IMG/VR virus record: IMGVR_UViG_3300046115_000059
Span: 1-64,000 of that record
Source: a virus
Direction: 5' to 3' (one strand)
DNA length: 64,000 nt
A model generated the notes under the pieces. The model made no database searches. It saw only the letters and a list, made by a program, of their open reading frames with translations, and was not told the DNA's origin. Positions 237 through 30,878 of the stretch are shown here, piece after piece (within the stretch, counting starts at the first letter, position 1; each line of letters starts with the position of its first letter). The position numbers and the translations under genes were made by a program.

Positions 237-264
237 TTGACATCGTTTTGAAACCGACTATACT
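237..264 (+). promoter_or_regulatory. Promoter cassette P1 (TTGACA-N16-TATACT with invariant spacer block TTGAAACCGAC)
   Basis: TTGACA 237-242, TTGAAACCGAC 248-258, TATACT 259-264. One of 11 related copies. Confidence 0.75.
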
Positions 265-319
265 TATTAAGTCAGTCGGGTATGGCAACCGGTAACGGCA
301 ACCACAAAAGGACACGACC

Positions 320-1123
320 ATGAACGCCACGATTTTCAAGACCTTCGAAACCTTCGCCACCACACTGCCGATCGAACAGCTGCGCAGCACGATCGATACC
401 GTTACCAGCACGCTGGACACGCTCACGAAGGAACAGCGGCACGCGGATGCGGCTGGCCTGCCGGAAGCGCTCGAAGCGCTCAGCGCTGAACTGTTCAAGC
501 GGAACGCGCAGAACTTCGCGATCGCTGCACAGGCCGACATTGTGGACAACGGAATCGAACTTGATTACCTCACCGGCCGCGCCGAACACGACGCGTTCGA
601 AGCAGGCGCCGAAGATATGGAACGGCGCGCGATGAAAAACGAAGCGCTGCGCGAAGCGGAAACCGAAGCACAGATGGCCGAGGATCTGAACACGCAAAAG
701 TCATTCGATCCGAAACGGTTCATTCTCGCGGGCAATGCGATTTTCACGTTGTCCAATAATAAGGGTGAACACCTGACGTTCCGCGTGCGTGCGAAGCAGG
801 ACGATCCGAATCGTGCGCCGGTCTACTTTGTGTCGCTGCTTGCCGGTGCGGACAACGTGAACGACTACACGTATCTGGGCATGGTCGATGCGAGCACGGG
901 CGCGGTGCGGCTCACGAAGAAATCCACCGACAACAATTTCACCGATGCGACAAAATCGGTCATGGTGATTCGCTGGTCGCTGGCGCTGATCTTCGCGGGC
1001 AAGTCGTTTCCAGTTGGCTACGACATCCGGCACGCGGGCCGCTGTGGTCGCTGCGGGCGGCTGCTCACGGTGCCCAGCTCGATCGATTCCGGTATCGGTC
1101 CGGAATGCGCGACACGCATGTAG
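320..1123 (+). CDS. Hypothetical early protein with C-terminal CGRCGR...GIGPEC zinc-ribbon-like motif (DUF6011-like)
   Basis: 267-aa ORF downstream of P1. C-terminus is HAGRCGRCGRLLTVPSSIDSGIGPECA. Confidence 0.7.
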   Translation: MNATIFKTFETFATTLPIEQLRSTIDTVTSTLDTLTKEQRHADAAGLPEALEALSAELFKRNAQNFAIAAQADIVDNGIELDYLTGRAEHDAFEAGAEDMERRAMKNEALREAETEAQMAEDLNTQKSFDPKRFILAGNAIFTLSNNKGEHLTFRVRAKQDDPNRAPVYFVSLLAGADNVNDYTYLGMVDASTGAVRLTKKSTDNNFTDATKSVMVIRWSLALIFAGKSFPVGYDIRHAGRCGRCGRLLTVPSSIDSGIGPECATRM

Positions 1124-1175
1124 TTCACCAGCCGGGCGCCTGCGGGTGCCCGGCACTTCACCGGAACAGGAGCCG

Positions 1176-1508
1176 ATGATGAATTTCAGCGAAATGGTTT
1201 CAATCTCGAAGCGGTTATCGGTGGGCAGCTTTACCGCGGCACCAATGGCTGATGTCCGCGGGCGCATTCTCAATCATCCGGATGCCGAATTCGTGAGCAG
1301 CTTCCACTGGCCGAACCGTTACTACTTTCAGATCGAGCACGGGCTCGGCACTGAACGGCGCGCGATTCCAATCGGGATGGAACCGGCCGAATCAGGCTGC
1401 GCAATCCGCAGACTGTGCCACCACGATGGCACGCTGGTCGGTACAGCGGAAAACGGTGTGCTGCGGCTCGTGGTCGACGGTGTGCCGTTCACGGTGACCG
1501 TATCATGA
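1176..1508 (+). CDS. Hypothetical protein
   Basis: ORF-track frame. ATG 1176/1179 preceded by AACAGGAGC (1165-1173). Confidence 0.55.
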   Translation: MMNFSEMVSISKRLSVGSFTAAPMADVRGRILNHPDAEFVSSFHWPNRYYFQIEHGLGTERRAIPIGMEPAESGCAIRRLCHHDGTLVGTAENGVLRLVVDGVPFTVTVS

Positions 1509-1864
1509 TGCGCCGCATTACGTTCGTGGCTGCCTTTCCGAACGTGTTCGTGCTGTTTCCGGTGTGCGGCCACGTGCAGCCGCGGCTGCGGTCCGAAGGG
1601 GAACCACCCGCGCGGATCCATTGCGCGCAGTGCGCGGCGCTATGGGTGCACCACGGGGCACCAGCTGGCACCGCAAAGGCCGATCGGTCGGTGCTGCTGG
1701 CGAAGCCACGGGCGCCAAAGCGGGCTCGTAAAGGGGCGCGTGTGCAGGTGCAGGGGGAAGAGCGGTTAATCGTGCGCGTGCTGCGCGGTGGCGAAGGGGT
1801 GCAGCTCGATCGGCCGGTGAAAGGGTTTGCCAATTGGGAACTGTCGGACGTGAGGGTGCTGTGA
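1505..1864 (+). CDS. Hypothetical protein
   Basis: ATGA overlap with the upstream stop. ORF-track frame 1415..1864. Confidence 0.45.
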   Translation: MMRRITFVAAFPNVFVLFPVCGHVQPRLRSEGEPPARIHCAQCAALWVHHGAPAGTAKADRSVLLAKPRAPKRARKGARVQVQGEERLIVRVLRGGEGVQLDRPVKGFANWELSDVRVL

Positions 1865-2094
1865 TGGCTCAAATCCTAGATGAACACGTGGCGGAACTAC
1901 TCGCTGATATTGACGGGATAGAAGCGGATCTGCGTAGGCTCGAAAACCGGCTGACATATGTGCGCTCGAAGCTACACCGGCTGTCCGGGCTGGGCAAGCG
2001 GTATGGTGATAACGGTCGCAGGCCGGAGCCGGTGCCACCAGCACCGCGGGCACCGGCACTGCCGCGCGATCTGGACGACGATATCCCGTTCTAA
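1864..2094 (+). CDS. Hypothetical coiled-coil protein
   Basis: ATG 1864 overlaps the upstream TGA. Heptad-like AELLADIDGIEADLRRLENRL. Confidence 0.5.
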   Translation: MAQILDEHVAELLADIDGIEADLRRLENRLTYVRSKLHRLSGLGKRYGDNGRRPEPVPPAPRAPALPRDLDDDIPF

Positions 2095-2112
2095 CTTTAT
2101 TTTCTGCAGCTC

Positions 2113-2140
2113 TTGACATCGGATTGAAACCGACTATACT
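2113..2140 (+). promoter_or_regulatory. Promoter cassette P2
   Basis: TTGACA 2113-2118, TTGAAACCGAC, TATACT 2135-2140. Confidence 0.75.
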
Positions 2141-2189
2141 TACTTTGTCGGTCGCAATTCCGCGGCAGACACTCGAAAGGGCCGAACCG

Positions 2190-2459
2190 ATGAACGCCGC
2201 AACCCTCGCCAGCTACTACACGGACGCCAAAGTGGCGGAACTGCAGGCGGCATTCAATCGCGTGGCGCCGAAGCCGAACTGGAAAACGGCGATCGACGCG
2301 ATCGTGATCGTCGTGAACGACGCGGAACTCGCCACGATCGCGGAAGCGGTCACGTTCTACACGGGCAGCATAATCATGGCGACCGTGGTTCGGCAGGATG
2401 GCATGCTGCGCAGCGTGCGCGTGCAGGCCGCTGGTTACTACGTGGCGATCGGAGCGTAA
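2190..2459 (+). CDS. Hypothetical protein
   Basis: ATG 2190 after GAAAGGG. The track start at 2124 lies inside the promoter and is rejected. Confidence 0.6.
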   Translation: MNAATLASYYTDAKVAELQAAFNRVAPKPNWKTAIDAIVIVVNDAELATIAEAVTFYTGSIIMATVVRQDGMLRSVRVQAAGYYVAIGA

Positions 2460-2460
2460 C

Positions 2461-3148: not shown

Positions 3149-3152
3149 AACC

Positions 3153-4040
3153 GTGGAACAGGAACCGAAACTAATTAAAGACGATTTGCCGCGATCCACT
3201 GTGGTGCGCGTAGCACTGGACGAAATCGCCACACCGGACGTCAGCGATCACGATGCCATCGAGGATATGGCGGCCAGTATTCGCGCGGTGGGCATGCTGC
3301 AGCCGGTGGTGCTGGTGCGGCACGTCAATAACTCGAAGCGCTTTCGCATCGTGGCGGGCCGCAGGCGCATCGCGGCACTGCTCGCAATCTGTAAGCAGGA
3401 CGAGAACGATCCGGCTGGCGTGCACGTGCATGCGCACGTGTTCGATACGTTATCAAAAGCCGAAGCGGCCGAGCGGTTGCTGCGCGAAAACGCGAATCGG
3501 TCAGACAACTATCTGGCCGAACGCGACGCACTGCTCACGCTGCAGGCGCAGGGGCTCGAACCAAAACAAATCGCGCAGCGGCTGCGCGTCAATCTGACAT
3601 GGGTGAATCGGCGGCTGTCGCTGGCCGCATTACCGGAACCAATTGCACAGGCGCTGCGCCGGGGCGACGTTACGTTCACGACGGCACTGCAGATCGTGCG
3701 GCTACCGGCACAGGCACGTACGAAACTTGCGCGGCAATACGAGAAGCGGCGCGACGAGGATGGATCGGCGCGCATTTCACAGGAAACGGTGCGCGCATCG
3801 CAGGAAACCGGACCGGTGCTGGTGGGACCGTTGTTTCCTGATCTGCGCACGAATACCGTCGTGGCAGCAGCGCACACGCGGCGCGAGCAGGCATGGCGCG
3901 ATGTCACCGAATGGATCGATCAGTCGGTGCAGCTCGGTGGCATTACCAAAAACGGTGCGCAATACATCAAAGCGGCGATCGAATCCTACGGCGCGGCACG
4001 TGAACAGCTGGGCACGATTCAAGCAGGGGAACGGTTATGA
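3153..4040 (+). CDS. ParB-like N-terminal (ParB/Srx) domain protein
   Basis: GMLQPVVLVRH...FRIVAGRRRIAALL matches the ParB N-terminal box. Helical C-terminal half. Confidence 0.8.
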   Translation: MEQEPKLIKDDLPRSTVVRVALDEIATPDVSDHDAIEDMAASIRAVGMLQPVVLVRHVNNSKRFRIVAGRRRIAALLAICKQDENDPAGVHVHAHVFDTLSKAEAAERLLRENANRSDNYLAERDALLTLQAQGLEPKQIAQRLRVNLTWVNRRLSLAALPEPIAQALRRGDVTFTTALQIVRLPAQARTKLARQYEKRRDEDGSARISQETVRASQETGPVLVGPLFPDLRTNTVVAAAHTRREQAWRDVTEWIDQSVQLGGITKNGAQYIKAAIESYGAAREQLGTIQAGERL

Positions 4041-5217: not shown

Positions 5218-5249
5218 AAACTTGCAGATTCAGGCCGGATTCGTGGCAC

Positions 5250-5277
5250 TTGACAACCGTTTGAAACCGACTATACT
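5250..5277 (+). promoter_or_regulatory. Promoter cassette P3 (drives a leaderless ORF)
   Basis: TTGACA 5250-5255, TATACT 5272-5277. ATG 5284 is the 7th nt after the -10. Confidence 0.75.
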
Positions 5278-5283
5278 TAGTGC

Positions 5284-5475
5284 ATGGTTATCGGATATCT
5301 CACACCGGTCGAGAGTGCTTCGGGCAAACTGTTTTGGCTCGTGCGAATTGAAGGCAACGGCACACCTTACACAATTGAGCGCACGTTTGAAATCTCACCG
5401 TATGCCGAGAAAGCCGTTTACGACACCGCAAAGGCATGCCGCATGGGCTGCCGGATCGTTTACAACAAGTTGTGA
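5284..5475 (+). CDS. Hypothetical protein (predicted leaderless)
   Basis: 63-aa ORF. ATG sits at the predicted +1 of P3, and no SD is possible. Confidence 0.55.
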   Translation: MVIGYLTPVESASGKLFWLVRIEGNGTPYTIERTFEISPYAEKAVYDTAKACRMGCRIVYNKL

Positions 5476-6310: not shown

Positions 6311-6312
6311 GC

Positions 6313-6340
6313 TTGACATAGGTTTGAAACCGACTATACT
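6313..6340 (+). promoter_or_regulatory. Promoter cassette P4
   Basis: TTGACA 6313-6318, TTGAAACCGAC, TATACT 6335-6340. Confidence 0.75.
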
Positions 6341-6391
6341 TAGTGAGTTGGTTCGCGGTAGTCGCGGGCGACAAGCAAGGGGGTTGGGCAC

Positions 6392-6685
6392 ATGGATTTC
6401 CGCTATCGCTACTCGGTGCAGCTGTTCACGGTGACCGGTCGCCAGACGCCTGCGGGCTGGCAGGTGGGCAAGCGCTTCGGGCACAAGGGGCTCGGTCAGC
6501 CGAATGCCGCGAAGCTGGCGCAGTACGTGGCCGACTATAACGCCAGCGTGCAGCCCGATGGCTGCAATGCGCATCTGGGCGCCGGTGCGGTGGCGATCGG
6601 CGCGGTGGTGAAGGATCACGATAACGATGCGCGCATCGTGGCTGGCTGGGGCACGTATCCGATCGTGTTGGCAGGGGTGCGCTAA
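6392..6685 (+). CDS. Hypothetical protein
   Basis: ATG 6392 after AAGGGGG. Confidence 0.55.
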   Translation: MDFRYRYSVQLFTVTGRQTPAGWQVGKRFGHKGLGQPNAAKLAQYVADYNASVQPDGCNAHLGAGAVAIGAVVKDHDNDARIVAGWGTYPIVLAGVR

Positions 6686-6962: not shown

Positions 6963-7352
6963 ATGGGAAACTCGCATTACAACGTGGCGCCGCGATGGTC
7001 TAGTGGTTCACCAGCCATGGTGGATCGGCGCACCGCGATCGGCGTAGCTGGTGACGAGCAATCGTCGCACTCGCACGCGCTACAGGGGTTTTACGGCGAG
7101 GATAAGCAGCGTGCGGCGCAGGCGCCCGGCGCGCTATCTGGCATCGTGGAACATCGCCACGAAAGCGGCCGCGGCTGGTTTGTGCGCGATCTGCTCACGG
7201 GCGAATACTTCTACCGCTGGGAACGCGGACACCGGCCGACAGCGGCGCAGCGCGCGGCAGTCCGGCGCAAGATGTTCACGATCTGGGAATCGGCCGATTA
7301 CCGTGAAACCGTGAAAAACGTTCCAGATTTCAGGGGCTTGACATCGGTTTGA
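6963..7352 (+). CDS. Hypothetical protein
   Basis: ATG 6963 seven nt after AAGGAG. ATG 6909 is an alternative start. The 3-prime end runs into P5. Confidence 0.5.
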   Translation: MGNSHYNVAPRWSSGSPAMVDRRTAIGVAGDEQSSHSHALQGFYGEDKQRAAQAPGALSGIVEHRHESGRGWFVRDLLTGEYFYRWERGHRPTAAQRAAVRRKMFTIWESADYRETVKNVPDFRGLTSV

Positions 7353-7365
7353 AACCGACTATACT
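7338..7365 (+). promoter_or_regulatory. Promoter cassette P5 (drives the leaderless SNF2 gene)
   Basis: TTGACA 7338-7343, TATACT 7360-7365. ATG 7372 is the 7th nt after the -10. Confidence 0.75.
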
Positions 7366-7371
7366 TATCAC

Positions 7372-9168: not shown

Positions 9169-9485
9169 CAGCAAAACGGTATTCGAAAGGGCTCACACAA
9201 AAACAGGAACGCGAAATCATCCGGGGTGGTGAGGCACCCGTCCCGGTGATTACGCCGCAGCATTCCGTACTGCTCAGCGACAAACAGCGCGAAGCACTGG
9301 TGCGCCGGTCGTATCAGCTCGCGGTGCGTGTGCAGGTGGCGGTACGCGATGCATGCGGCTATGCCGTTACGCTAGACGAAGCACTGATCGTGGCGCGGCT
9401 GCTTGTGCTCGATCTGGTCGCTGATGGCCGTGGACATTCGCTATTGCAATTACTCGACACCGCAAAACAGGAGCTGAAACCATGA
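9141..9485 (+). CDS. Hypothetical protein (start uncertain; GTG 9162 also possible)
   Basis: ORF-track frame overlapping the end of the SNF2 gene. Confidence 0.45.
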   Translation: MEWSRCTVVAAKRYSKGLTQKQEREIIRGGEAPVPVITPQHSVLLSDKQREALVRRSYQLAVRVQVAVRDACGYAVTLDEALIVARLLVLDLVADGRGHSLLQLLDTAKQELKP

Positions 9486-9712
9486 ACGTGATCCCGATGG
9501 AAATTCAATCCGCACGCTATGTGAAACAGGCGCTCGATTACTTCAACGGCAACAAACGCAAAGCCTGCAGGCGGTTAGATATTTCGTATCACACGATCAA
9601 CCGCTATCTGGCGATCGAGTTGCGCTGGCGCGGGCTCAGCGATCAGGCGATCGCGGTGGAACACGTGCAGCGCGTGGGTGCCGATGATTTTTTGAAAGCG
9701 CTTGCGCAGTAG
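9482..9712 (+). CDS. Fis-type helix-turn-helix DNA-binding protein
   Basis: NKRKACRRLDISYHTINRYL resembles the Fis/NtrC C-terminal HTH. Confidence 0.6.
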   Translation: MNVIPMEIQSARYVKQALDYFNGNKRKACRRLDISYHTINRYLAIELRWRGLSDQAIAVEHVQRVGADDFLKALAQ

Positions 9713-9729
9713 TTGAAATAGACTATACT
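9702..9729 (+). promoter_or_regulatory. Promoter cassette P6 (degenerate: TTGCGC -35, spacer TTGAAATAGAC)
   Basis: TTGCGC 9702-9707, TATACT 9724-9729. Confidence 0.6.
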
Positions 9730-9749
9730 CACACGTGCAGGAGAACCGA

Positions 9750-12401: not shown

Positions 12402-12899
12402 ATTTTGTATGTTGATCTATTTAGTGTGCGGAGTCATACTCCGCGCCTAGAAACGAAAGGCCGCCACCGCGGGAAACGGTAGCGGCCAGATTCGACCGTG
12501 CTGGTAATGACAGCGACGGGCGGTTTCAGCCGTCAATCCTACCATTCCAGCACTCTAAAAATCTAGGTTTCTCAGCCGTGTGTGCAGGGGCTAACTGTAA
12601 CCAGCGGGCATACGGATGAGTTTCCCACAGCGAGCAATCCGGATGGGGCTAATAGCTCGCGCATGCGCCAGTGGCGAAACCACGGGGGCGCCTAGCTAGG
12701 GTTGGATTGGCCGACTCATAAAATTTCCCGTGGAATGCTGGCGCCGTATCGACCAGCATCCGACGATGACGGGCGGGCACCGTGGGGATATCCCTCGAAT
12801 GGCTGCAACGGTTATCGTGTTCGGGTATCCGCCGCTCTAGGGAGTGGCTTGCCCGAACGACTCAGGTGCGGCGCAGCCGTAAGGATTGGAGCTGGGGCA
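12402..12899 (+). ncRNA. Candidate large structured RNA, long structured leader or origin region (unclassified)
   Basis: 498 bp between a stop and the next SD-led ATG. No ORF of 60 aa or more on either strand across 12416-12701. At least six stable hairpins are present; coordinates are in the findings. Confidence 0.4.
12412..12440 (+). promoter_or_regulatory. Candidate promoter TTGATC-N17-CATACT at the start of the ORF-free region
   Basis: TTGATC 12412-12417, CATACT 12435-12440. The -10 resembles the cassette TATACT. Confidence 0.3.
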
Positions 12900-13433
12900 A
12901 TGAGGCTACCGAAAACAGTGTTGGATGCAGTGCGAAAATATAAAGCACTGATCAATGGTCCGGATCCGGACAATCTTTTTCAGAAAGATCCGGGCGAAGA
13001 GGAGATCGCGGAAATTGTTGGCGCCAAAATGAGCGTCGCGGATGCGGTGCTCGCGTGGATCGATGTGCATCCGATCGCGCCAAAACCGGCAAAGGTGGCC
13101 GCGTTGAAAGTTGCAGATCCATCGGTGTCGATCGTGATGAAGCGCTACGAATCGCTATGGCGCGCGAAGCACGGGAATGAACCGTTACCGCCGCAGAATT
13201 GGCCGATGATCGGTCGGCAGACGAAAGCGCTGCTGCTGAACTACGGCGAGCAGCGCGTGCTGCAGATGCTGAAAATCTATGTCGTGGAAGGCGATCTATT
13301 CTGGGCGAAGCAGGGATTTCCGTGGAGCGGTTTCTATAGCAGCGTGCCACGGCTGGCACTCGCCACACGCGGGCCGCTCGCGCAGGGCTCGGCAGCCGAT
13401 CGCGTCGCAGCTAAACTAGTCGGGGGTGCGTAA
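12900..13433 (+). CDS. Hypothetical protein (possible replication-module protein)
   Basis: ATG 12900 eight nt after GGAG (12888-12891). The track TTG start at 12702 is rejected. Confidence 0.6.
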   Translation: MRLPKTVLDAVRKYKALINGPDPDNLFQKDPGEEEIAEIVGAKMSVADAVLAWIDVHPIAPKPAKVAALKVADPSVSIVMKRYESLWRAKHGNEPLPPQNWPMIGRQTKALLLNYGEQRVLQMLKIYVVEGDLFWAKQGFPWSGFYSSVPRLALATRGPLAQGSAADRVAAKLVGGA

Positions 13434-13729: not shown

Positions 13730-14529
13730 CGCGCGCCGAAGCGGCCGAACTGGTGAAGGAATTCGATCGTGTGGCGCGGTCCGGCGTGCTGAAACTCACG
13801 ACGCAGCCGAACGAAGATTTTTGGACGCTCTATATCAGCGCGCTGGCCGATTACGATCTGATCGTCGCGCGCGCGGCAATGCAGCGTTATATTCGCACCG
13901 CTGGCATGGTGTTTTTCCCGACACCGGGGCAACTGATCGAACTGGTGGAAGGCGCAGGCGACGATCGTGGTCTGCAAGCGTGGCTGATATTCAACGAAGC
14001 TATTCACCTGATCGGCAATTTCAAGTCGCTGATCGTAGAGGATGCTGCGCTCGGGCGCGCGCTCGCGCAGGTGTTCGGCGGTTGGATCGATGCGTGTGAC
14101 ACGCGGGCCATAACCGAAGAGCCGACATGGCAGGCGCGAAAAAAGGAATTCGTGTCGAGCTACCGGTTTCACAGCATGGCCGCACCGTGCGAAGCGGATC
14201 CGATCTGGTTCGACGGTTTCTGTGTGCAGCAGAATCGTGAGAACCTCGGGCGCTGGGATTGGCACCTGCAACAGCTGATCGAGTATGCCGGGGTGATCAC
14301 GCGCAGTTTCGAACTGCAGGAGCGGCGCGTGGAACTGGATGGCAAAACACTGGCGCGGCTGCTGCCACTGCGCGACATCCTCGCATTGCCGCAGCCGATG
14401 CGCACGTCGGTGGCTGCGCTGCCACCGTCTGATCCGGTTGAAGTGTTCACGCCGGAACAGCGTGCGAAAGCGCTGGCGCACCTGCACTCTGAATTTCAGC
14501 GCGTGCTGCAGCAACGGGGCATGCTGTGA
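13726..14529 (+). CDS. Hypothetical protein (possible replication-associated)
   Basis: 267-aa ORF with ATGA overlap, positioned before RusA. Confidence 0.55.
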   Translation: MTRAEAAELVKEFDRVARSGVLKLTTQPNEDFWTLYISALADYDLIVARAAMQRYIRTAGMVFFPTPGQLIELVEGAGDDRGLQAWLIFNEAIHLIGNFKSLIVEDAALGRALAQVFGGWIDACDTRAITEEPTWQARKKEFVSSYRFHSMAAPCEADPIWFDGFCVQQNRENLGRWDWHLQQLIEYAGVITRSFELQERRVELDGKTLARLLPLRDILALPQPMRTSVAALPPSDPVEVFTPEQRAKALAHLHSEFQRVLQQRGML

Positions 14530-15155: not shown

Positions 15156-15378
15156 GCCGGACGCTGAAATTTTCAATACGCGCAATTGCATTCAGCTCAC
15201 GCGCGATGAGCACGAAGCGGTCACGCATAACCGAATGTGGATCGACGTCGGGGAACAGGGCGCCGATGGCTGCGCGTATTTCTGGGCGGGCTCGGCAAAA
15301 CAAGGGAAGCGTGATCAGCTGCTGGGGTGCAGTGATGTCAGCGCGAACGCGACGAACAGGGCGACGGTGGAACAGTAA
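14890..15378 (+). CDS. HNH-like nuclease-family protein (Cys-poor variant); start uncertain (14866/14890)
   Basis: KPLRRNRKPIARKTPLRKRS...VWARDGGSRLSG...EMHEIVSRA...NTRNCIQLTRDEH follows the pattern of phage HNH proteins. It lies in the +1 frame relative to the RusA tail. Confidence 0.45.
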   Translation: MFRSGKWATSHRLRSQNIKRHKPLRRNRKPIARKTPLRKRSVKNRLRGPLIQAVHDLVWARDGGSRLSGLESPTNEMHEIVSRAKLRGRPDAEIFNTRNCIQLTRDEHEAVTHNRMWIDVGEQGADGCAYFWAGSAKQGKRDQLLGCSDVSANATNRATVEQ

Positions 15379-15775
15379 CGGCGCGCGGCTGTCGCGCGTG
15401 CAGCTGCTGCTGGCCGGTGATTGGGACGCGCTCGAAGCGGAGATGCGTCCGCGCTGGCGTGCGCAGCTGAAACTGGAACCGTGTAACTACTGCGGGGCGC
15501 CGGTGTCTCGGCGGCTCGAAGATCGCACGATCGATCACATTCGGCCGCAGGTGCACGGCGGCAACAATGAACTGGAGAACCTCGCCAGCGCGTGCAAGAC
15601 GTGCAACGGGGAAAAAGGCAGCAACACGCTGCTGCAGTTTCTCGTGCTGCGCGCGATGCCAACGGCACACAGCAGCGACTATTATCGGCGCGTGAATTTC
15701 CGGCCGCAATTCAATCCGCTGTTCCGAGCTGAACATCAAAAAGTGCTGGACGACGCGTGCGATCATGGGCGCTAA
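15335..15775 (+). CDS. HNH endonuclease
   Basis: CNYCGAPV...TIDHIRPQVHGGNNELENLASACKTCNGEKG. Confidence 0.85.
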   Translation: MSARTRRTGRRWNSNGARLSRVQLLLAGDWDALEAEMRPRWRAQLKLEPCNYCGAPVSRRLEDRTIDHIRPQVHGGNNELENLASACKTCNGEKGSNTLLQFLVLRAMPTAHSSDYYRRVNFRPQFNPLFRAEHQKVLDDACDHGR

Positions 15776-16025
15776 AATCAAACCGCCACCGGAACCGCCG
15801 AAGCTTGCCGAAGTCTGGCAGCTGAATGCAGAATGCGACGGTGGTCGAACAGCAGAGGGGCGCGCTGATGTGACTGACGTCTACATTAGTCGAAGGCATA
15901 ATAGCATCATGGTGCGCGCGATCATCGATGGCAGCGGCACGGAGAAAGTATTCCGGCTCGGGAATTTCCGGCGCCTGTATCAGCGTGTGCCGGTCGTGCA
16001 TAATTGCACGTGTTGCGGGGGCTAA
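15765..16025 (+). CDS. Hypothetical protein
   Basis: 86-aa ORF from the track. Confidence 0.45.
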   Translation: MGAKIKPPPEPPKLAEVWQLNAECDGGRTAEGRADVTDVYISRRHNSIMVRAIIDGSGTEKVFRLGNFRRLYQRVPVVHNCTCCGG

Positions 16026-16029
16026 CTCT

Positions 16030-16746
16030 ATGAACGAATTCGGCACGGGGCGACTGCCGTCCGATGATCCGCGCGATCAGAATTATCCGGTGCGACTCGC
16101 GTTGGCCGCGGTGCCGGTGCCACCAAAACGCAAGCGGCCGTATCGGTTGGGACCGACGCAGAATCAGGCGCGCACACCATACTGCACGGGTTATAGCGCG
16201 TGGCACAAGCTGGCCGCGGCGCCGATCATGGCGAAGCCTGCGGATCTCCTGTCACCGGCAGCCTTCTACTTCGGGGCGCAGGATCACGACGAGTGGCCGG
16301 GCCGCGACTACACGGGCAGCAGTGTACGCGGGGCGAACGCGTTTCTGGTGGGCGCGGGCTACATCAAAAGTTATGTGTGGGCGAGCACCACGCGCGAGTG
16401 CATCGATTTCCTGTTGGGCGGCTATGGCACCATGCTGTGGGGCACGAACTGGTATCCGTCGATGTTCGTGCACGACTACACGGGGCGCATTATGGAACCG
16501 GAACCGGGCGCGACGCCGGATAGCGGACACGCGTTCCACGTCTTTTGGTATCACGCGCCAGACGATGAATTTTGGTTTCAAAACTCGTGGCTGCCGTGGG
16601 GTGTGACGCTGAACGGGCAGCCGGGCTGCGGGAAAATCCCGCGGCGCATTGCCGATCGGTTGCTGCACGAAGATGGCGAAGCGTGCGCCGGTATCGAGCG
16701 GAAAGTCATTCCCCTGACCATCGTGCCGAACGTGCCACGTGGCTGA
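16030..16746 (+). CDS. Papain-like (C1-type) cysteine peptidase
   Basis: QNQARTPYCTGYSAWH (Gln/Cys), GHAFHVFWY (His) and FQNSWLPWG (Asn-Ser-Trp) in papain order. Confidence 0.6.
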   Translation: MNEFGTGRLPSDDPRDQNYPVRLALAAVPVPPKRKRPYRLGPTQNQARTPYCTGYSAWHKLAAAPIMAKPADLLSPAAFYFGAQDHDEWPGRDYTGSSVRGANAFLVGAGYIKSYVWASTTRECIDFLLGGYGTMLWGTNWYPSMFVHDYTGRIMEPEPGATPDSGHAFHVFWYHAPDDEFWFQNSWLPWGVTLNGQPGCGKIPRRIADRLLHEDGEACAGIERKVIPLTIVPNVPRG

Positions 16747-17392
16747 TCGTCTGCAGTCGCGGATCGTTGGTGAGGGGCTCGTGGCGCCGGATCAATTGCT
16801 CGCGCATCCGGATAACTGGCGCCTGCATCCGGTGTTTCAGCAGGACGCGCTGCGTGCGGTGCTCGAAGATATCGGCTGGGTGCAGTCGGTGATCGTCAAT
16901 CAAACCACTGGACATGTGGTCGACGGGCACTTGCGCGTGGAGCTGGCGCTCGCGCATCACGAAGTAAAAATCCCGGTGCAATACGTGCGCATCAGCGAAG
17001 AGGAAGAGCGGCTGCTGTTGGCGACGCTCGATCCGATGTCCGCGCTGGCCGGGCGCCACGACGATAAAATCAAAATGCTGCTGGCGCAGCTGGGCGACGA
17101 TCGGCCGGAAGAGTTGCGGCTGTTGCTGGAGTACCAGCTCGATACCGATGCCATGCGTAAGCAGTTGCTCGATCAGCAGCAAGCCGCGCAGCCCGCGGCC
17201 GCGGTTGTGGAACAGGCTGGCGACACGACCGGGCGGCTGGTGCAGCTTTTTTACAGCCCGCAGCAGATGGCCGAATTTCAAGCGCTGGTGACACTCAAGC
17301 GGAACGCTGGTGCGGCTACGCTCGAAGAGGCAGTGCTCAGCGCACTACAGGATGCGGCGAATGGTGCAACAGAAACGGCGACGACCGAATAG
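16739..17392 (+). CDS. ParB-like nuclease-domain protein, paralogue 1
   Basis: HPDNWRLHPVFQQDALRAVLEDIGWVQSVIVNQTTGHVVDGHLRVELA. Confidence 0.7.
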   Translation: MADRLQSRIVGEGLVAPDQLLAHPDNWRLHPVFQQDALRAVLEDIGWVQSVIVNQTTGHVVDGHLRVELALAHHEVKIPVQYVRISEEEERLLLATLDPMSALAGRHDDKIKMLLAQLGDDRPEELRLLLEYQLDTDAMRKQLLDQQQAAQPAAAVVEQAGDTTGRLVQLFYSPQQMAEFQALVTLKRNAGAATLEEAVLSALQDAANGATETATTE

Positions 17393-17468
17393 TATTCCTA
17401 GCGCGCTGGCGATCAGCGATTTTCGAGCGTCGATCGATCGCGTCGTCCGTGAAGATGGGAAATGCTAC

Positions 17469-17798
17469 GTGCGCGACACCGCGATCTGCAGCTCGTGCAC
17501 ATGCGGCGCGTGGTCGCCAGTTCCATCTATCTATCTGCCGAAGGTCGGGCCGAACGGCTCGCAGCCATCGATAAGGAGTTACGTGGTCGTCCCTTGTTCA
17601 GTGTGCGGTAGAAATATCGATGACGAATCGCGGTGGACGATTTGTCCGCATGGGCCATTAGAGGCAGGTGTCAGCGACTACTGCATGCTGCACGATCTGG
17701 TGATTTCGCGGCATCCGGACATCTGCACGCCAGCATGCAAGGCTGCCGCGGTGCGCGCGACGGCTCGCTACGATCGGCTGCGTCATGTCTTTTCGTAA
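17469..17798 (+). CDS. Cys-rich hypothetical protein (start very uncertain)
   Basis: Only long frame between the two ParB paralogues. Contains CSSCTCG, CSVCG and CPHG. The only start candidate past the upstream stop at 17392 is a non-ATG one (GTG 17469). Confidence 0.3.
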   Translation: MRDTAICSSCTCGAWSPVPSIYLPKVGPNGSQPSIRSYVVVPCSVCGRNIDDESRWTICPHGPLEAGVSDYCMLHDLVISRHPDICTPACKAAAVRATARYDRLRHVFS

Positions 17799-18444
17799 TC
17801 GCATCGTCAAGCATGCGGACGTGGATCCATTCCAGCTCGAAATGCACGAGCTGAACTGGCGCAGTCATTCCGTGCACCAGCAGGACGCGGTGCTGTCGGC
17901 GCTCGAAGCCATTGGCTGGGTGCAGCGGGTGATTGTCAGCGTCAAGACGAATCGTGTGCTGGATGGGCACCTGCGTGTGCAGCTCGCGCGTGAACGCGGG
18001 GAAACCTCGCTGCCGGTGCGCTACGTGAAAGTCTCAGAAGATGAGGAGCGGTTGATCCTCGCCACGTTCGATCCGATTGCGGCGCTTGCGGGCCGCGATA
18101 AGGCGAAGGTGAAAGACCTGATCGATCGGCTGCCTGAATCCGTGCCAGATGGGTTGCTGCCTTTGATCGAGCATGGCTTGGATCCGCGCGCGGTCGAGCG
18201 GGCACTCGCGCAGAATCAGGACGTGGCACCGGCGACGGATCCGCAGGATGTGGCGGCCGATGAATCGGCGCCGGAATCGGGCAGTTCGCGCGCACCGTCC
18301 GATCAGGATATTCGCACGGTGCAAATGTATTTCAATCCGGCACAGCGCACCGCGTTTGATGCGGCCGTTTCGGTGCTGTCTGTGGCCTACGCGATCGACA
18401 ACGAAAGCGATCTGGTGCTCGAAGCGCTGCGCCGCAGTGTATAG
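17785..18444 (+). CDS. ParB-like nuclease-domain protein, paralogue 2
   Basis: HELNWRSHSVHQQDAVLSALEAIGWVQRVIVSVKTNRVLDGHLRVQLA aligns along its length with 16739..17392. Confidence 0.7.
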   Translation: MSFRNRIVKHADVDPFQLEMHELNWRSHSVHQQDAVLSALEAIGWVQRVIVSVKTNRVLDGHLRVQLARERGETSLPVRYVKVSEDEERLILATFDPIAALAGRDKAKVKDLIDRLPESVPDGLLPLIEHGLDPRAVERALAQNQDVAPATDPQDVAADESAPESGSSRAPSDQDIRTVQMYFNPAQRTAFDAAVSVLSVAYAIDNESDLVLEALRRSV

Positions 18445-18454
18445 TCGATTTCGT

Positions 18455-18483
18455 TTGCAACCATTCCCGTGCTGCAGTAGACT
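18455..18483 (+). promoter_or_regulatory. Candidate promoter TTGCAA-N17-TAGACT (not of the cassette family)
   Basis: TTGCAA 18455-18460, TAGACT 18478-18483. Confidence 0.35.
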
Positions 18484-22545: not shown

Positions 22546-22694
22546 GGAAAATCAAACGGCGGCCAGTGCCACATGGTTACTGGTTAGCGGGCAAGGATCG
22601 ACGGTGGCGCGGCGTGCTGTATGCCGAACGTGTGCAGCGCTGGCGCAGTCGACACCGTAATCCAACACACGGCAACATTCGGAAACGACCATGA
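22542..22694 (+). CDS. Small Arg-rich protein (50 aa)
   Basis: ATGA overlap at both ends. Translated by hand. Confidence 0.35.
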   Translation: MRKIKRRPVPHGYWLAGKDRRWRGVLYAERVQRWRSRHRNPTHGNIRKRP

Positions 22695-22789
22695 TGCGCT
22701 GGTGTTACGGCTGTGTGCGCAACACGTGGCACCGGCTGGTGCGGCAATCCAATGGCGTCGACGGCTGGCGCTGCAGCCGGTGCAGCTGA
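22691..22789 (+). CDS. 32-aa zinc-ribbon micro-protein
   Basis: MMRWCYGCVRNTWHRLVRQSNGVDGWRCSRCS. Overlapping start and stop codons with both neighbours. Confidence 0.35.
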   Translation: MMRWCYGCVRNTWHRLVRQSNGVDGWRCSRCS

Positions 22790-23100
22790 TGGGCGCGAAT
22801 AACGGCACCGGTCAACCGAACTGGCTGCGCTGCGCGAAGCTGCGCCGTTCACCGATCGCGCGGTTCTATACGATCTTCGATCTGGAACGGCACGAGCTGA
22901 CCGCCACCGGACGCGTGCGCAAGCTACCGGCACGATCACACGGCTACGGCGGCGCTCGGGTGACGAACCGGCTGATTCAGGTCGCCTGCACCTGCGGGCA
23001 CGTGGGCTGGACGCGGCACAAGGATGCCGAGCGGCTACTGGCGCAGCTCGATCGGCCGCAGCGGCGGGCAGGGAACGACTATGAAATACCTCGCAGCTAA
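22789..23100 (+). CDS. Hypothetical protein
   Basis: TGATG overlap at ATG 22789. Confidence 0.45.
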   Translation: MGANNGTGQPNWLRCAKLRRSPIARFYTIFDLERHELTATGRVRKLPARSHGYGGARVTNRLIQVACTCGHVGWTRHKDAERLLAQLDRPQRRAGNDYEIPRS

Positions 23101-23977: not shown

Positions 23978-24754
23978 ATGCCGGAACCGCAGGCGCCGCA
24001 GCCGGGCGCACCTAACGCACCGATACGCAAGGGCCGCGGGCACGTCGAGAAACACCGGGCGGAAGTCGAAGCGCGGCGCGAAAAGGTGCTGCAGCTCCGG
24101 TTGATGAAAAAGACCACGCGCCAGATCGCGGAGATTCTGGGCGTGGAACGCACGACAATCAGTCGGGATCTCACGCACATGCAGGCCGCGTTTCGCGTGC
24201 AGTATGGCGTGGAGAATTTCGATCCGGCTGTTGCGGTGGCCGAAGCGATCGAGACGTTCAATTTTTGCGAAGCGCGGGCGATTACGGAATTTCTCTCGCT
24301 CGATCGCGCGCAGGAATCTGGCGCCGAGCACATTCGCAAAGCGATCGCGGTGGCGATGCCGCAACTGCTGGCTGAGGCTCGTGTCGGCATCGGCAGTGCG
24401 ATTAAGGATCGGTTGGACGCGCTGGCCGAACAGGTGTCGAACATCGCGCGCGCGGACAAGTCGCGCACACGGGCGCTCACGTATGCGAAGCTGCGCTGCC
24501 TGCAGCAGGCGCGCGGGGCAGTGCAGGCGCGGATGGATCTGCTGCAGGATGTGGGGCTGGTGGATCGTCAGGTGGGCAGTGCAGGCGAAGTGCGCGGCGA
24601 TGCGCGGAGGATCAAAGCATGGCTGGACACGGTGCAAGTGATGGACGCGGAACTGGTCAGCAGCGCGGAACAGAAGTATCTGACGGGCGACACGGAAACA
24701 ACGGCAGCGGCGTTGGATTCCGTGGTGAAGGACCGCCCGTTCGAACCATCGTAG
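23978..24754 (+). CDS. HTH-domain protein (transcription regulator or displaced small terminase candidate)
   Basis: KKTTRQIAEILGVERTTISRDL is a sigma region-4/LuxR-like HTH, followed by a long helical region. Confidence 0.5.
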   Translation: MPEPQAPQPGAPNAPIRKGRGHVEKHRAEVEARREKVLQLRLMKKTTRQIAEILGVERTTISRDLTHMQAAFRVQYGVENFDPAVAVAEAIETFNFCEARAITEFLSLDRAQESGAEHIRKAIAVAMPQLLAEARVGIGSAIKDRLDALAEQVSNIARADKSRTRALTYAKLRCLQQARGAVQARMDLLQDVGLVDRQVGSAGEVRGDARRIKAWLDTVQVMDAELVSSAEQKYLTGDTETTAAALDSVVKDRPFEPS

Positions 24755-25877: not shown

Positions 25878-25921
25878 TCGTCCCAGATGATCAGTATGGA
25901 ACGCGACGGCTGGATCGACGC

Positions 25922-26110
25922 GTGGGAAGGGCTCGGGTTGTCGTGAAGCACGTTTGTTGCGAATGCCATCGCAAACAGGCGCAGACGCAACCGGTGATCC
26001 AGTTTCAATCTGCGGAAGTCGCGCGCGTGTGTAAAGCGTGCTGGTATCGGCTCGGTTACGACGATCACATGCAGCCGTGGTCGCAGCCACCAGACAACCA
26101 CACTATCTAG
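25922..26110 (+). CDS. Small zinc-ribbon protein (CCEC...CKAC)
   Basis: ORF track. GTG 25943 is an alternative start. Confidence 0.45.
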   Translation: MGRARVVVKHVCCECHRKQAQTQPVIQFQSAEVARVCKACWYRLGYDDHMQPWSQPPDNHTI

Positions 26111-26154
26111 CGGGCTCGATAATGTCGGGTCAAAACAGGCCGGATTCTGCAGGC

Positions 26155-26182
26155 TTGACAACGGTTTGAAACAGACTATACT
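26155..26182 (+). promoter_or_regulatory. Promoter cassette P7 (leaderless; spacer TTGAAACAGAC)
   Basis: TTGACA 26155-26160, TATACT 26177-26182. ATG 26189 is the 7th nt after the -10. Confidence 0.75.
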
Positions 26183-26188
26183 TATTCC

Positions 26189-26470: not shown

Positions 26471-26472
26471 TC

Positions 26473-26589
26473 ATGTATTTCTGCACACGCTGCAATCGAC
26501 CGATGTCGCGCGGCCGCTGGGGCTGGTTCGTGCACGTGATCGTGCGCGCCTGCGAGAATCAATTCGCGTATTGGGCGGAAGTGGACTAA
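26473..26589 (+). CDS. 38-aa hypothetical protein (CTRC motif)
   Basis: ATG 26473 in the track frame. Confidence 0.35.
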   Translation: MYFCTRCNRPMSRGRWGWFVHVIVRACENQFAYWAEVD

Positions 26590-26593
26590 AGCT

Positions 26594-26836
26594 ATGAACG
26601 CGCGCAACACGCGCCAGCCCTTCGCGCAGCGTCGACGCCGGTTCACCGATGCGCTGCAGGGTGAACGCTGCAGCTACGACATCACGCTGGGCGACGGTTC
26701 GCAGGCGCAATGCGGCCGCACGCAATCGACGGGCTGTGCCGGGTATTGTCGGCAGCACTGGCGCATGATCCAGCGCGAAGGGCTGCCGATTTCGGTAAAA
26801 ACAGGCCGGGAAATTAGGGACTTGACAACCGTTTGA
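26594..26836 (+). CDS. Hypothetical Cys-rich protein
   Basis: 80-aa ORF that ends inside P8. Confidence 0.45.
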   Translation: MNARNTRQPFAQRRRRFTDALQGERCSYDITLGDGSQAQCGRTQSTGCAGYCRQHWRMIQREGLPISVKTGREIRDLTTV

Positions 26837-26849
26837 AACCGACTATACT
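26822..26849 (+). promoter_or_regulatory. Promoter cassette P8 (leaderless)
   Basis: TTGACA 26822-26827, TATACT 26844-26849. ATG 26856 is the 7th nt after the -10. Confidence 0.75.
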
Positions 26850-26855
26850 TATCTC

Positions 26856-27485: not shown

Positions 27486-27694
27486 GCGGCGTATTCTGCA
27501 CGGCTGCGAAGCTGCACCGCGGGCGCTGGCTTGTGGTGCAGCGGAACTGCAACCATTCCGCATTTAGCGGCTACCGGCTCACGTGGTCGGCATGGAGTGC
27601 TGTCTGGTGCCCGGTGTGCCGCAGCATCTGGCGCACGAAGGCGGGCTATGTGGCCAGCCTGCCGGATGCGCCAGCAAATTGGTTCGAGAAATAA
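27482..27694 (+). CDS. Hypothetical protein (NHSAFSGY...CPVCRSIWRT motif)
   Basis: TTG 27482 overlaps the upstream TGA. Confidence 0.45.
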   Translation: MSGVFCTAAKLHRGRWLVVQRNCNHSAFSGYRLTWSAWSAVWCPVCRSIWRTKAGYVASLPDAPANWFEK

Positions 27695-27698
27695 GCGC

Positions 27699-27726
27699 TT
27701 GACAAGCACTTGAAACCGACTATACT
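27699..27726 (+). promoter_or_regulatory. Promoter cassette P9 (near-leaderless)
   Basis: TTGACA 27699-27704, TATACT 27721-27726. ATG 27736 is 10 nt after the -10. Confidence 0.75.
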
Positions 27727-27735
27727 TAGTGAATT

Positions 27736-28044
27736 ATGGTCAATCACACAGCGGCAACGATTCTCGAACAGCTCGGCGGGCGCCGGTTCGCATTCATGAC
27801 GGGCGCGCGCAATTTCATCGGCTCGGAGAATGCGCTCAGCTTCCGGCTGCCGGGCGCGGGCGGTTTCTGCAAGGATGGGATCAACGCGGTGCGTGTGGTG
27901 CTCGATCCGTCAGATACCTACACCGTCACATTCTCGCGCGTGCGCGGCACAAAGGTGACGACGGTCGCCGAGCATGCGGACATCTACTGTGAGCAGCTAG
28001 CGGATCTGGTGAGCCGGACAACCGGTCTGGTGGTGCGGTTGTGA
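27736..28044 (+). CDS. Hypothetical protein
   Basis: 102-aa ORF from the track. Confidence 0.6.
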   Translation: MVNHTAATILEQLGGRRFAFMTGARNFIGSENALSFRLPGAGGFCKDGINAVRVVLDPSDTYTVTFSRVRGTKVTTVAEHADIYCEQLADLVSRTTGLVVRL

Positions 28045-28528: not shown

Positions 28529-28556
28529 ACCCTCGAAACGAACAGGAGCGTTTCTC

Positions 28557-29150: not shown

Positions 29151-29180
29151 AACCCTCGAACGAACAGGAGCGTTCGGATC

Positions 29181-29339
29181 ATGAAACGATTACTACTCAT
29201 CGGGTTGCTGGCGTTTTCGCCAGCGTGTTATTTCGAACTGCGCACGGATGGCTACATCTACGCGTGCGACAATGCCATTCCGTTCAATGGGGCAACGATC
29301 ACAGGCTGCCAAAGCACCGGCGTCAAGGTGACGTTTTAA
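29181..29339 (+). CDS. 52-aa exported or lipoprotein-like peptide
   Basis: MKRLLLIGLLAFSPAC plus three more Cys. The same SD hairpin lies upstream. Translated by hand. Confidence 0.45.
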   Translation: MKRLLLIGLLAFSPACYFELRTDGYIYACDNAIPFNGATITGCQSTGVKVTF

Positions 29340-29878
29340 TGGCGATGCCATTCAAACCGATCCGCAATGCGCGGGGCGACTCGTGGGACGGTGTCGCGTG
29401 GACACCGTTCAAACGGGTGGATGTACTGAACGATGATCCACTGACTACGGCCGCACACGCGGATCCGCAAGCCGTGTTTGTCAACAGCCGGTATCAGGTG
29501 GCGATCTGGCACGGGCACGCCGAACCCTTCGGCGTCTATCGGCACTTGTCGATCAAGACGCACGATCGATCGGCGCGGCACGATTTTCGTGATCTTCAGC
29601 GCATCAAAAACGAATTGGTCGGACCGGAATGCGATGCGATCGAAATCTATCCGGCTGAATCCAAACTGGTCGACGGTGCGAATCAATACCATCTCTGGGT
29701 GTTCGAAGCGTTCAAGTTGCCGATCGGATTTCCCGTGCGGTGCGTGAGCGATGGCGACTGGCGCAATAGTAAGCAACGGCCGTTTGCCCACGGGGAACGT
29801 CCGGCCGACTGCTTGGATCCGGAACAATTCGAGGCACTGTATCAGCAGCAGCTGGCGCAGGTGGAAGGGACATCATGA
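29339..29878 (+). CDS. Hypothetical protein
   Basis: TAATG overlap at ATG 29339. Confidence 0.55.
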   Translation: MAMPFKPIRNARGDSWDGVAWTPFKRVDVLNDDPLTTAAHADPQAVFVNSRYQVAIWHGHAEPFGVYRHLSIKTHDRSARHDFRDLQRIKNELVGPECDAIEIYPAESKLVDGANQYHLWVFEAFKLPIGFPVRCVSDGDWRNSKQRPFAHGERPADCLDPEQFEALYQQQLAQVEGTS

Positions 29879-30852
29879 AAATGAAATCGTTCGTGCTACT
29901 CGTGGCGATCATCGTGTCGGCGCACGCGCAGGCGCAGGGGCTGCCGGTCTGGACGTCGCATACCACACTGGCCGCATTCACAGCGGATGAGAAAACGCGC
30001 ATCGTGAATCTGGCCGATAACGTGTTCGTGCCGCTGACCGATGACGAAGTGGTGCAGGCAGGCATTGCGCTGGGGCAGCTCTACGCCAACGACGCGGCTG
30101 GTGCGGCGTATCTGCAGGCGCTGGGCTATCTCGTCTACACGTTCAATCCTGCGGGCAAGTCGTATTACCTCGTGCGCGAGCCGAGTGGCGCAGCGTTTCG
30201 CGGGCTTGGCACACACGTGATCAACCGGGCGCCGGTGACGAACACCGTCGTGCATGGTAAGCACATTGCCACCGATACCAAATCGCACTTGTCGACGCTG
30301 CGCTTTTTCGAGGAACTGGGTGCGGTCGCCATGGCATGGACGGGTGTGACGCGCTGCAGTAGTTCAACGCTGTCACCGTGTATCAGTCCGTCAGTCTTTT
30401 GCAACGGTGGCGATCGGATCAGTGATGCAAACCGGTTTCACCAGAATATGATCACGGCTAGTACGCTGGCCGCGCAGGCGCGCGGGGCGATCACGTTCGA
30501 CGTGCACTCGAACAGCACCGAAGTGAAATCAATCGTGCTGGGCGCCGGTGGCACACTGTCTGGTGAACCGCTGGCGTTTCTCACGAACCGGATCCGCGAT
30601 CGGCTGGTGGCAACGTCGGCGCTGTCGACGGGCGCGTGCGAACATCCGGGCGATTCGGGGCTGGTGTTTTGCGGAGAATACTTGCAGATGAAAATCTGCA
30701 ACGGGCTCACGCCGGGCGAAGCCTGCGCCGGGCTCGATCCCGCGAGCAGCACCGAAACCTATGTGCAAGTGGAACTGCGCAGCGTGATCGTGGATTCCCT
30801 GACGAACACGCGCACGCTGGTGAATGCGATCAAAGCAGAACTGCCACAATAA
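29875..30852 (+). CDS. Secreted protein (Sec signal peptide)
   Basis: MKMKSFVLLVAIIVSAHAQAQG, then a Cys-rich mature region. Confidence 0.6.
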   Translation: MKMKSFVLLVAIIVSAHAQAQGLPVWTSHTTLAAFTADEKTRIVNLADNVFVPLTDDEVVQAGIALGQLYANDAAGAAYLQALGYLVYTFNPAGKSYYLVREPSGAAFRGLGTHVINRAPVTNTVVHGKHIATDTKSHLSTLRFFEELGAVAMAWTGVTRCSSSTLSPCISPSVFCNGGDRISDANRFHQNMITASTLAAQARGAITFDVHSNSTEVKSIVLGAGGTLSGEPLAFLTNRIRDRLVATSALSTGACEHPGDSGLVFCGEYLQMKICNGLTPGEACAGLDPASSTETYVQVELRSVIVDSLTNTRTLVNAIKAELPQ

Positions 30853-30861
30853 CGCGCGGAC

Positions 30862-30878
30862 GTGAAATCGACTATACT
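30862..30878 (+). promoter_or_regulatory. Cassette-type element P10 lacking a -35 (GTGAAATCGAC-TATACT)
   Basis: TATACT 30873-30878. The -35 position reads AACGCG. ATG 30889 is 11 nt after the -10. Confidence 0.5.

Follow-up and report, generated by a model that had tools for sequence, protein, structure and literature searches.

The early promoters of phage T4 are 'uber' promoters in which UP, -35, TGn and -10 elements are combined with an extra consensus, and which are read by the host polymerase (Hinton 2010, PMC2988021). T4-type phages also carry PeSL cassettes, i.e. repeated early promoters that are defined by a stem-loop (Arbiol 2010, PMC2839356), and in the Pseudomonas phages YuA and 14-1 conserved phage-specific motifs are present in 9-11 copies at transcription starts and appear to need phage factors (PMC10914365), which shows that such motif families are common. 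Here we describe a repeated promoter cassette in the first 64,000 nucleotides of the virus record IMGVR_UViG_3300046115_000059 of IMG/VR. This stretch, referred to below as the window, comprises 64 kb of a 71,970-bp JGI metagenome contig. The cassette occurs in eleven copies, of which the eight complete ones consist of an A/T-rich tract, C-TTGACA, five unspecified nucleotides (N5), the block TTGAAACCGAC, the hexamer TATACT and TA. The family is cleanly delimited and represents an already known sort of repeated phage promoter, not a new mechanism; what is distinctive is the unusually rigid spacer together with predicted leaderless early transcripts, in a new phage clade. We tentatively favour, at a rough probability of 0.45, the reading that the block and the -10 hexamer constitute a recognition module of phage early promoters that would be read by the host holoenzyme.

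A search for TTGAAACCGACTATACT with at most three mismatches gave eleven matches in the window, all on the + strand, against a chance expectation of 0.01. A position weight matrix of the 19-nt core scored eleven sites at 22-37 bits, and the next best sequence reached 9.5 bits, which is the level of shuffled sequence. All eleven TTGAAACCGAC-TATACT sites are located between genes or at the edge of a gene, 23-84 nt upstream of the next start. TATACT is found in every copy, GAC-TATACT (-15 to -7) is identical in all eleven, and the spacer is 16 bp in each of the nine copies with a -35 region. In the eight full copies the C before TTGACA and the TA after TATACT are invariant as well. A perfect TTGACA is present in eight of the eleven copies and TTGCGC in one (9702), while the two remaining copies (30862 and 37338) have no -35. 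The first-pass annotation of this DNA, made from the sequence alone, had listed eleven copies, nine of them with TTGACA; the eleven sites were recovered, and the number with TTGACA falls to eight. Its 16-nt spacer, the identity of the block in seven copies and the lack of a -35 in two were reproduced, and the one or two substitutions that it gave for the other blocks were found in the 9702 copy (two changes) and in cassette 7 (one change). Its claim that the block is more conserved than the -35 depends on the way of counting: it holds by number of sites (block 11, TTGACA 8), but not among the nine copies with a -35 region, in which the -35 is perfect in eight and the block in seven. The relatedness that it had noticed over 25-30 nt upstream extends over 25-45 nt at 40-60% identity in most copies, with repeat families of 60-71 nt, and the upstream A+T content is 40-64%, compared to 39.6% for the whole window.

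In mode of working, the T4 early promoters appear to be the closest system. Shared properties are the many copies, an excellent -35 and -10 for unmodified host polymerase, the A/T-rich tract, extra conserved positions, and a putative location at the head of immediate-early units. Unlike the T4 promoters, the cassettes of the window have an invariant GAC plus TTGAAAC instead of TGn, a 16-nt spacer and several predicted leaderless transcripts, and both phage and host are unrelated and uncultured. With the PeSL cassettes, which had been put forward as an analogy in the first-pass annotation, they share a repeated strong sigma70-like promoter, an A/T-rich upstream tract, a neighbourhood of small ORFans and homology of a length suited to recombination. 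The analogy fails on the defining stem-loop: nine cassettes were folded and gave z-scores from -1.25 to +1.02 with no shared hairpin, a separate terminator being present only upstream of cassette 1, and an exchange event was not seen.

Mycobacteriophage stoperators (the L5 gp71 sites) are found in temperate phages, mostly stand alone at a distance from promoters, and need an immunity repressor. They resemble the motif of the window in being short, asymmetric, present in many copies and in one orientation relative to transcription. In contrast to stoperators, each copy in the window is fused to a -10. The earlier comparison with stoperators is not upheld, as the block never occurs apart from a -10, and neither an integrase nor a CI/Cro-type immunity repressor was found among the approximately 80 window proteins scanned (8 kb of the contig lie outside the window). 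As matters stand, this is a good but ordinary family of repeated phage promoters; it nevertheless shows where the early transcription units are probably located in a phage clade that is uncultured, and the cassette is a compact, apparently very strong promoter with a directly testable spacer.

The eleven copies can be arranged according to the distance between TATACT and the next start codon. In four of them the ATG lies exactly 6 nt past TATACT (5284, 7372, 26189 and 26856; P ~1.5e-5), and these genes are predicted to be leaderless. They are preceded by cassette 3 (5249..5279, complete), whose start at 5284 was also called independently in a separate assembly of the same phage (L055, see below); by cassette 5 (7337..7367, complete), which has the stop codon of the upstream gene inside the block and precedes a gene for an SNF2 helicase whose homologue P0069 aligns from residue 1; by cassette 7 (26154..26184, complete), in which the block has a single C to A change; and by cassette 8 (26821..26851, complete), which shares 30 identical nt with cassette 3 and whose gene product aligns with a PHROG family from residue 1. 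Two more copies have leaders of 3-4 nt. These are cassette 9 (27698..27728, complete), with the ATG at 27736, 9 nt past TATACT, a leader of ~3 nt and a product whose residues 5-102 match positions 3-98 of the phrog_9437 profile, and the half cassette without -35 at 30862..30878 (GTGAAATCGAC-TATACT, 26.5 bits), which lies in a 36-nt gap before the gene at 30889, the ATG being 10 nt past TATACT.

In three copies, all complete, the leader has 43-49 nt and includes a Shine-Dalgarno sequence: cassette 1 (236..266, gene at 320, ~49 nt), cassette 2 (2112..2142, gene at 2190, ~43 nt) and cassette 4 (6312..6342, gene at 6392, ~45 nt). Directly before the first of these is a hairpin (165-190, or 165..198 with its T-run, + strand) resembling an intrinsic terminator, with a 9-bp stem containing seven G-C pairs and followed by the T-run ATTTTTTTGC, which would end the preceding unit. 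Cassette 6 (9701..9731) is weakened, with TTGCGC as -35 and a block changed at two positions (TTGAAATAGAC; 30.7 bits); it overlaps the 3' end of a gene for a Fis-type helix-turn-helix (HTH) protein and precedes a Mgm101/Rad52-like gene with its ATG at 9750 and a leader of ~14 nt containing GGAG. Finally, a second half cassette without -35 is present at 37338..37354 (TATGAACCGAC-TATACT, 22.0 bits), in a 130-nt gap ahead of the genes that come before that of the portal protein.

For the starts at 7372, 26856 and 27736 the alignments with homologues begin at residue 1 or a few residues from it. Since the ATG begins at the seventh nucleotide past TATACT in four copies and these N-termini agree with those of homologues, the start codons can be used to calibrate both the -10 and the transcription start. 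Apart from the cassettes, the 60 kb scanned contain no site that agrees with the sigma70 consensus at 11/12 positions. With high confidence, the cassettes are predicted to be early promoters for host polymerase with its primary sigma factor, with starts ~7 nt past TATACT. The earlier designation as promoter cassettes is supported by the hexamers, the 16-nt spacer, the intergenic placement, the terminator-like hairpin before the first copy and the start-codon register, and its probable start ~7 nt past TATACT is supported indirectly by the four ATGs at that position and by the three starts that match the N-termini of homologues. The phage is predicted to make heavy use of leaderless mRNAs. Such mRNAs are translated efficiently in, for example, Actinobacteria, Deinococcus-Thermus and some Alphaproteobacteria, and the predicted reliance on them would therefore narrow the candidate hosts to lineages that translate leaderless mRNAs well.

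A window scan for TAnnnT-N5-8-ATG arrangements outside the cassettes gave none that was convincing. Outside the family, the promoter-like sequence CTGACG-N17-CATAAT is present at 15874-15911, followed after 6 nt by the ATG of a 38-codon open reading frame (ORF); this may be another leaderless unit, without the block.

The divergence between the copies is distributed very unevenly. In the eight complete copies there is one substitution in the 26 core columns compared to at least eight in the five columns of the gap, and the mean pairwise difference is 0.01 for the core, 0.50 for the gap and 0.62-0.65 for the flanks. Had the core diverged as fast as the gap, it should have acquired ~42 changes (Poisson P ~4e-17). 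Five internal bases have thus diverged inside a frozen core, and as gene conversion would not skip them, the block must be selected: it is under selection and not merely recently copied, with a constraint as tight as that on both hexamers, as had been suspected when the spacer block was first noticed. Like repetition, placement and start-codon register, this selection is a direct observation. It makes it very improbable that the copies are simply recent duplicates, or have been homogenised by gene conversion, with no special function. Such an origin would agree with the length of the repeat families and with the two copies that are identical over 30 nt, but not with flanks and a 5-nt gap that are 50-65% divergent around a core that is 99% identical, nor with the retention of the block by a distant relative. 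Within the block, the bases nearest to the -10 are the best conserved: GAC-TATACT is identical in every copy, TTGAAAC is degenerate in three weak copies, and the TA after the -10 is lost in both copies without a -35. The block was never found without TATACT in the window, the only near matches (32117 and 52896) being at chance level.

The distant relative is the metagenomic contig L051, with a portal protein 59% and a terminase 68% identical to those of the window. It contains tCGAAACCGAC-TAGACT before a gene that is not homologous to any in the window, with TTTACA as -35 at 18 nt. As L051 keeps block and -10 with a different and differently spaced -35, the block travels with the -10 and not with the -35. 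A second relative, L052 (portal 50% identical, 69.5% G+C), has a four-copy cassette of its own, consisting of a G/C hairpin, TTGCCA, N17, TACAAT and GGTTTCAGTTCGGACG, at 540-620, 1000-1075, 14060-14140 and 15600-15660, with the poly-G/poly-C hairpin around or before TTGCCA. In this cassette the bases immediately on either side of the -10 are conserved, and TGAAACC occurs in it as the reverse complement; with its G/C hairpins, it is more PeSL-like than the cassette of the window.

These observations suggest the following model. The eleven sites would form one phage promoter family for host polymerase of the sigma70/sigmaA type, the full copies combining an A/T-rich UP-like tract, C-TTGACA, a 16-bp spacer, TATACT and the A/T start of the discriminator. 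The complete cassettes would head early transcription units on the + strand, with transcription starting ~7 nt past TATACT, which in four units would be the A of the ATG and would give a leaderless mRNA. Block and TATACT would act as a single module of 17-19 bp with its register fixed to the -10 and not to the -35, in which the universal GAC at -15 to -13 would occupy the location of an extended -10. This module would be read by the holoenzyme itself as a long, lineage-specific 'extended -10', which would allow the copies at 30862 and 37338 to function although they lack a -35, and would make the full cassettes very strong immediate-early promoters. We favour this reading, which was absent from the list of explanations in the first-pass annotation, and rank it first because of the fixed register with the -10, the graded conservation, the persistence of the module before genes without its -35 (here and in L051) and the absence of any stand-alone copy. 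Both the identity of the reader and the strength of the promoters are what we infer from these features.

TGn extended -10 promoters, and the -35-independent middle and late promoters of Thermus phage P23-45, offer a parallel. There, as may be the case here, a conserved element that adjoins the -10 on its upstream side could replace the -35, and full and -35-less copies are found in one phage. The cassettes of the window differ from them in having GAC and not TG, in a conserved stretch of 11 bp, and in that function without a -35 is a prediction.

Several points weigh against reading by the host holoenzyme. To our knowledge, sigma70 holoenzymes do not read the bases at -23 to -18, their contacts being limited to approximately -18 to -13, and we know of no described extended -10 that is as long as 11 invariant bases. 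The T at -15 and G at -14 of an extended -10 (TGn) are absent from all eleven copies, which have GAC at -15 to -13. In addition, the spacer consensus is partly palindromic (TCGGTTT-G-AAACCGA), a property that is commoner in operators, and four DNA-binding proteins of the phage could read the block instead.

The main alternative, already among the suggestions of the first-pass annotation, is that the block, by itself or together with TATACT, serves as operator. A DNA-binding protein of the phage would occupy every early promoter and, in the course of infection, shut off or retune the early regulon. In that case the copies without a -35 would provide additional binding sites, or roadblocks, at the boundary with the late genes, and the two hexamers would be all that the host polymerase reads. 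Precedents for operators of this type are the P1 C1 operators, the L5 gp71 sites, the KorA/KorB regulon of RK2 and TF1 of SPO1. An operator explains the stretch at -23 to -18, which is invariant beyond the known polymerase contacts, and the unvarying TATACT, which is never TATAAT in eleven copies, as expected for part of a longer protein site, at least as well as reading by the holoenzyme. The symmetry of the sites speaks both for and against an operator. The partial dyad of the consensus is perfect over 15 bp in the spacer of cassette 5 (TCGGTTTGAAACCGA) and is found with one or two mismatches in six other copies, but its left half coincides with the variable N5, so that the symmetry is weak. 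Similarly, cassette 2 has an inverted block downstream of the -10 (GTCGGTCGCAA, 9/11; the copy at 2124), but it is the only copy with a good one, and the sum over all copies is 66 compared to a null of 64 +/- 2.8, which is not significant. Further points against an operator are that stand-alone sites are absent from the window and that, as mentioned above, a CI/Cro-type repressor was not detected.

Candidate readers of the block do exist, all on the + strand where placed. The ParB/Noc/RepB-family protein encoded at 3153..4040 (TIGR00180, E 2e-14, below the curated cut-off) is an early protein of the unit headed by cassette 2; a ParA partner was not found in scans of the window proteins, and the parS-like 16-bp palindrome TGTTTCACGTGAAACA had no match in the window with up to three mismatches, which counts against an operator of this kind. 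The second candidate is the 76-residue Fis-type HTH protein encoded at 9482..9712 (PF02954, E 3e-6), and a Xis-like HTH protein from the late region is the fourth. The third, encoded at 23978..24754, has 258 residues with an N-terminal HTH similar to region 4 of sigma-70/extracytoplasmic function (ECF) sigma factors, and is present in all relatives close to the gene for the large terminase subunit. In favour of an operator, the counterpart of this protein in L051, a relative with the block, shows 62% identity, and that in L052, whose cassette has the reverse complement of TGAAACC, shows 35%. However, since its gene adjoins the terminase gene in relatives, the product may instead be the small terminase subunit.

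All in all, we regard an operator as possible, though doubtful. Two more specific forms of these readings are, in our view, unlikely: that the block is the operator of a phage-wide early regulon of a lytic phage, read by the ParB/KorB-like protein or by the protein with the HTH resembling sigma region 4, or that it marks an unrecognised base-specific contact of the primary-sigma holoenzyme with the spacer (-23 to -13), the host belonging to an uncultured lineage with efficient translation of leaderless mRNAs. Either would represent a new class of phage transcription switch or a new promoter element; more generally, a base-by-base reader of the block, be it the polymerase or a protein of the phage, would add a defined promoter element or a switch of early genes to those known.

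The cassette could in principle also be read by machinery of the phage itself, i.e. a sigma factor, a sigma appropriator or an RNA polymerase encoded in the 8 kb beyond the window. The contiguous invariant core of 19 bp has the length of phage-polymerase promoters, copies without a -35 exist, and the 258-residue protein has an HTH like that of region 4. The motifs of YuA and 14-1, which appear to need phage factors, provide a precedent (PMC10914365), but in contrast to the cassette with its textbook hexamers they do not resemble bacterial promoters. The perfect TTGACA at 16 nt in eight copies and the ATG at +7 from TATACT fit the geometry of host sigma70, and the invariant core stops at -5, before the start site. 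Moreover, the approximately 80 window proteins scanned contain no Sigma70_r2 or Sigma70_r4 domain that passes the threshold and no RNA polymerase, and thus the non-standard sigma or polymerase specificity suggested earlier finds no phage-encoded candidate among the proteins scanned. We consider reading by phage machinery quite improbable. A promoter for a single-subunit polymerase like that of T7 was rejected for its wrong geometry, the core ending at -5, and for lack of a polymerase among the proteins scanned; reading by an ECF-type sigma factor of TGAAAC-N16-GTC fits only the three copies with long leaders and was dropped.

A further explanation, close to the module shuffling suggested in the first-pass annotation, is that the cassette serves above all as a portable linker for recombination, like a PeSL. 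Identical patches of 30-60 nt would allow the recombinase of the phage to exchange, remove or acquire small gene modules that carry their own promoter. At a distance of 21.6 kb, the copies at 5250 and 26822 share 30 identical nucleotides. An independent assembly of the same phage, L055 (Logan SRR35441057, 21,600 bp), spans window positions 5250-26849, starting exactly at the 5250 cassette, and its other end, as calculated from its length, lies within the 26822 copy; the break in the assembly is thus accounted for by the 30 nt that the two copies have in common. Judging from the sequence, this homology could support a 21.6-kb deletion or an inversion-free exchange in vivo. In addition, the genes behind the cassettes are mostly small ORFs without homologues in L051 and L052, a Rad52/Mgm101-like annealing protein and RusA are encoded, and the PeSL cassettes are a precedent (PMC2839356). 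On the other hand, recombination needs homology and not a particular sequence, and so fails to explain five free bases inside 26 frozen ones. A conserved stem-loop is absent, and only an assembly break was seen at the two identical copies. A role mainly as linker is improbable; it is plausible that recombination between copies is a side effect of the promoter family.

The first-pass annotation had also noted that its interpretation would be refuted if the extended motif were simply the promoter consensus of the host. The exact 17-mer of block and hexamer gave 45 single matches in 596 Gb (185,579 reference genomes), which is close to our estimate of the chance number (~70 for a uniform 17-mer), and none of the 45 has TTGACA in register. 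It was multi-copy in none of these genomes, which is a weak test against the idea of a host consensus. In Trinickia (L026, 2713-2729) and Dyella (L042, 5053-5069) the 17-mer lies between genes for an SDR dehydrogenase and an HxlR-type regulator, in a divergent promoter region that is conserved in these two proteobacterial genera, and with 5 similar nucleotides before it; TTGACA is not in register, and these matches were judged unrelated to the phage. A literature search for the sequence of the cassette found no paper. Close relatives were not found by searches of IMG/VR with the 17-mer or with the annealing protein, nor of JGI metagenomes with the 17-mer (42 single matches); the window's own contig is absent from the DNA collections used for the 17-mer searches.

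The window has a G+C content of 60% and approximately 97 genes, called on codon usage, on the + strand throughout. Its gene set includes the SNF2 helicase, the Mgm101/Rad52-like annealing protein, the ParB-family protein, RusA, DNA methylases and an HNH endonuclease. The structural genes encode a Mu-like portal protein, a protease and a capsid protein, and a 1,558-residue ORF at 53822-58498 is taken to be the tape-measure gene on the basis of its size and position. Neither a tRNA nor an Rfam family was detected in the window. A megablast search against GenBank phages gave no match to the window, portal, terminase and capsid proteins show 25-34% identity to those of cultured phages, and the best matches among GenBank phage proteins remain below 35%. 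The source is a tailed, uncultured phage of a clade without cultured relative. About ten metagenomic relatives have capsid proteins that are 72-81% identical, and the best relatives are ~70% identical in the DNA of shared genes. In two relatives found by their portal protein (L100 and L101) the cassette was not seen near the portal gene. Homologues of the SNF2 helicase were tried as a route to the early regions of relatives, but the contigs obtained (L098 and L099) turned out to be different phages. Portal, helicase and capsid homologues were also followed as a lead to the host; one helicase homologue is from a metagenome-assembled genome of Phycisphaerae, but the helicase homologues belong to unrelated phages and the lead was abandoned.

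Some other features were observed. L051 encodes a repetitive structural protein of 1,065 residues (15267-18464) with ~20 degenerate repeats of 60-69 nt (20-23 residues), which is absent from the window at that position. In the window, two paralogous genes are neighbours at 16739-17392 and 17785-18444 (217 and 219 residues), with a stretch of 85 nt that is 78% identical, and in the gene at 43685-45025 (446 residues) a unit of 54 nt is tandemly duplicated at 44353-44460 with 78% identity. In the middle of the promoter-less block of 10-26 kb, a stretch of ~0.5 kb without ORFs (12402-12900) has a predicted RNA fold of -222 kcal/mol (z = -4.6), and none of 100 shuffled sequences was equally stable. 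Iterons are absent, and Rfam gave no match at a threshold as loose as E <= 1; it is possibly a large structured RNA, or a replication origin. Finally, the codon-usage caller left gaps at 22546-23023, 25878-26188, 26471-26835, 27486-27690, 33730-34053 and 38625-38852. Viewed by eye, these appear to contain short frames with paired CxxC motifs, which suggests that many small zinc-ribbon proteins may be encoded in the cassette-rich regions.

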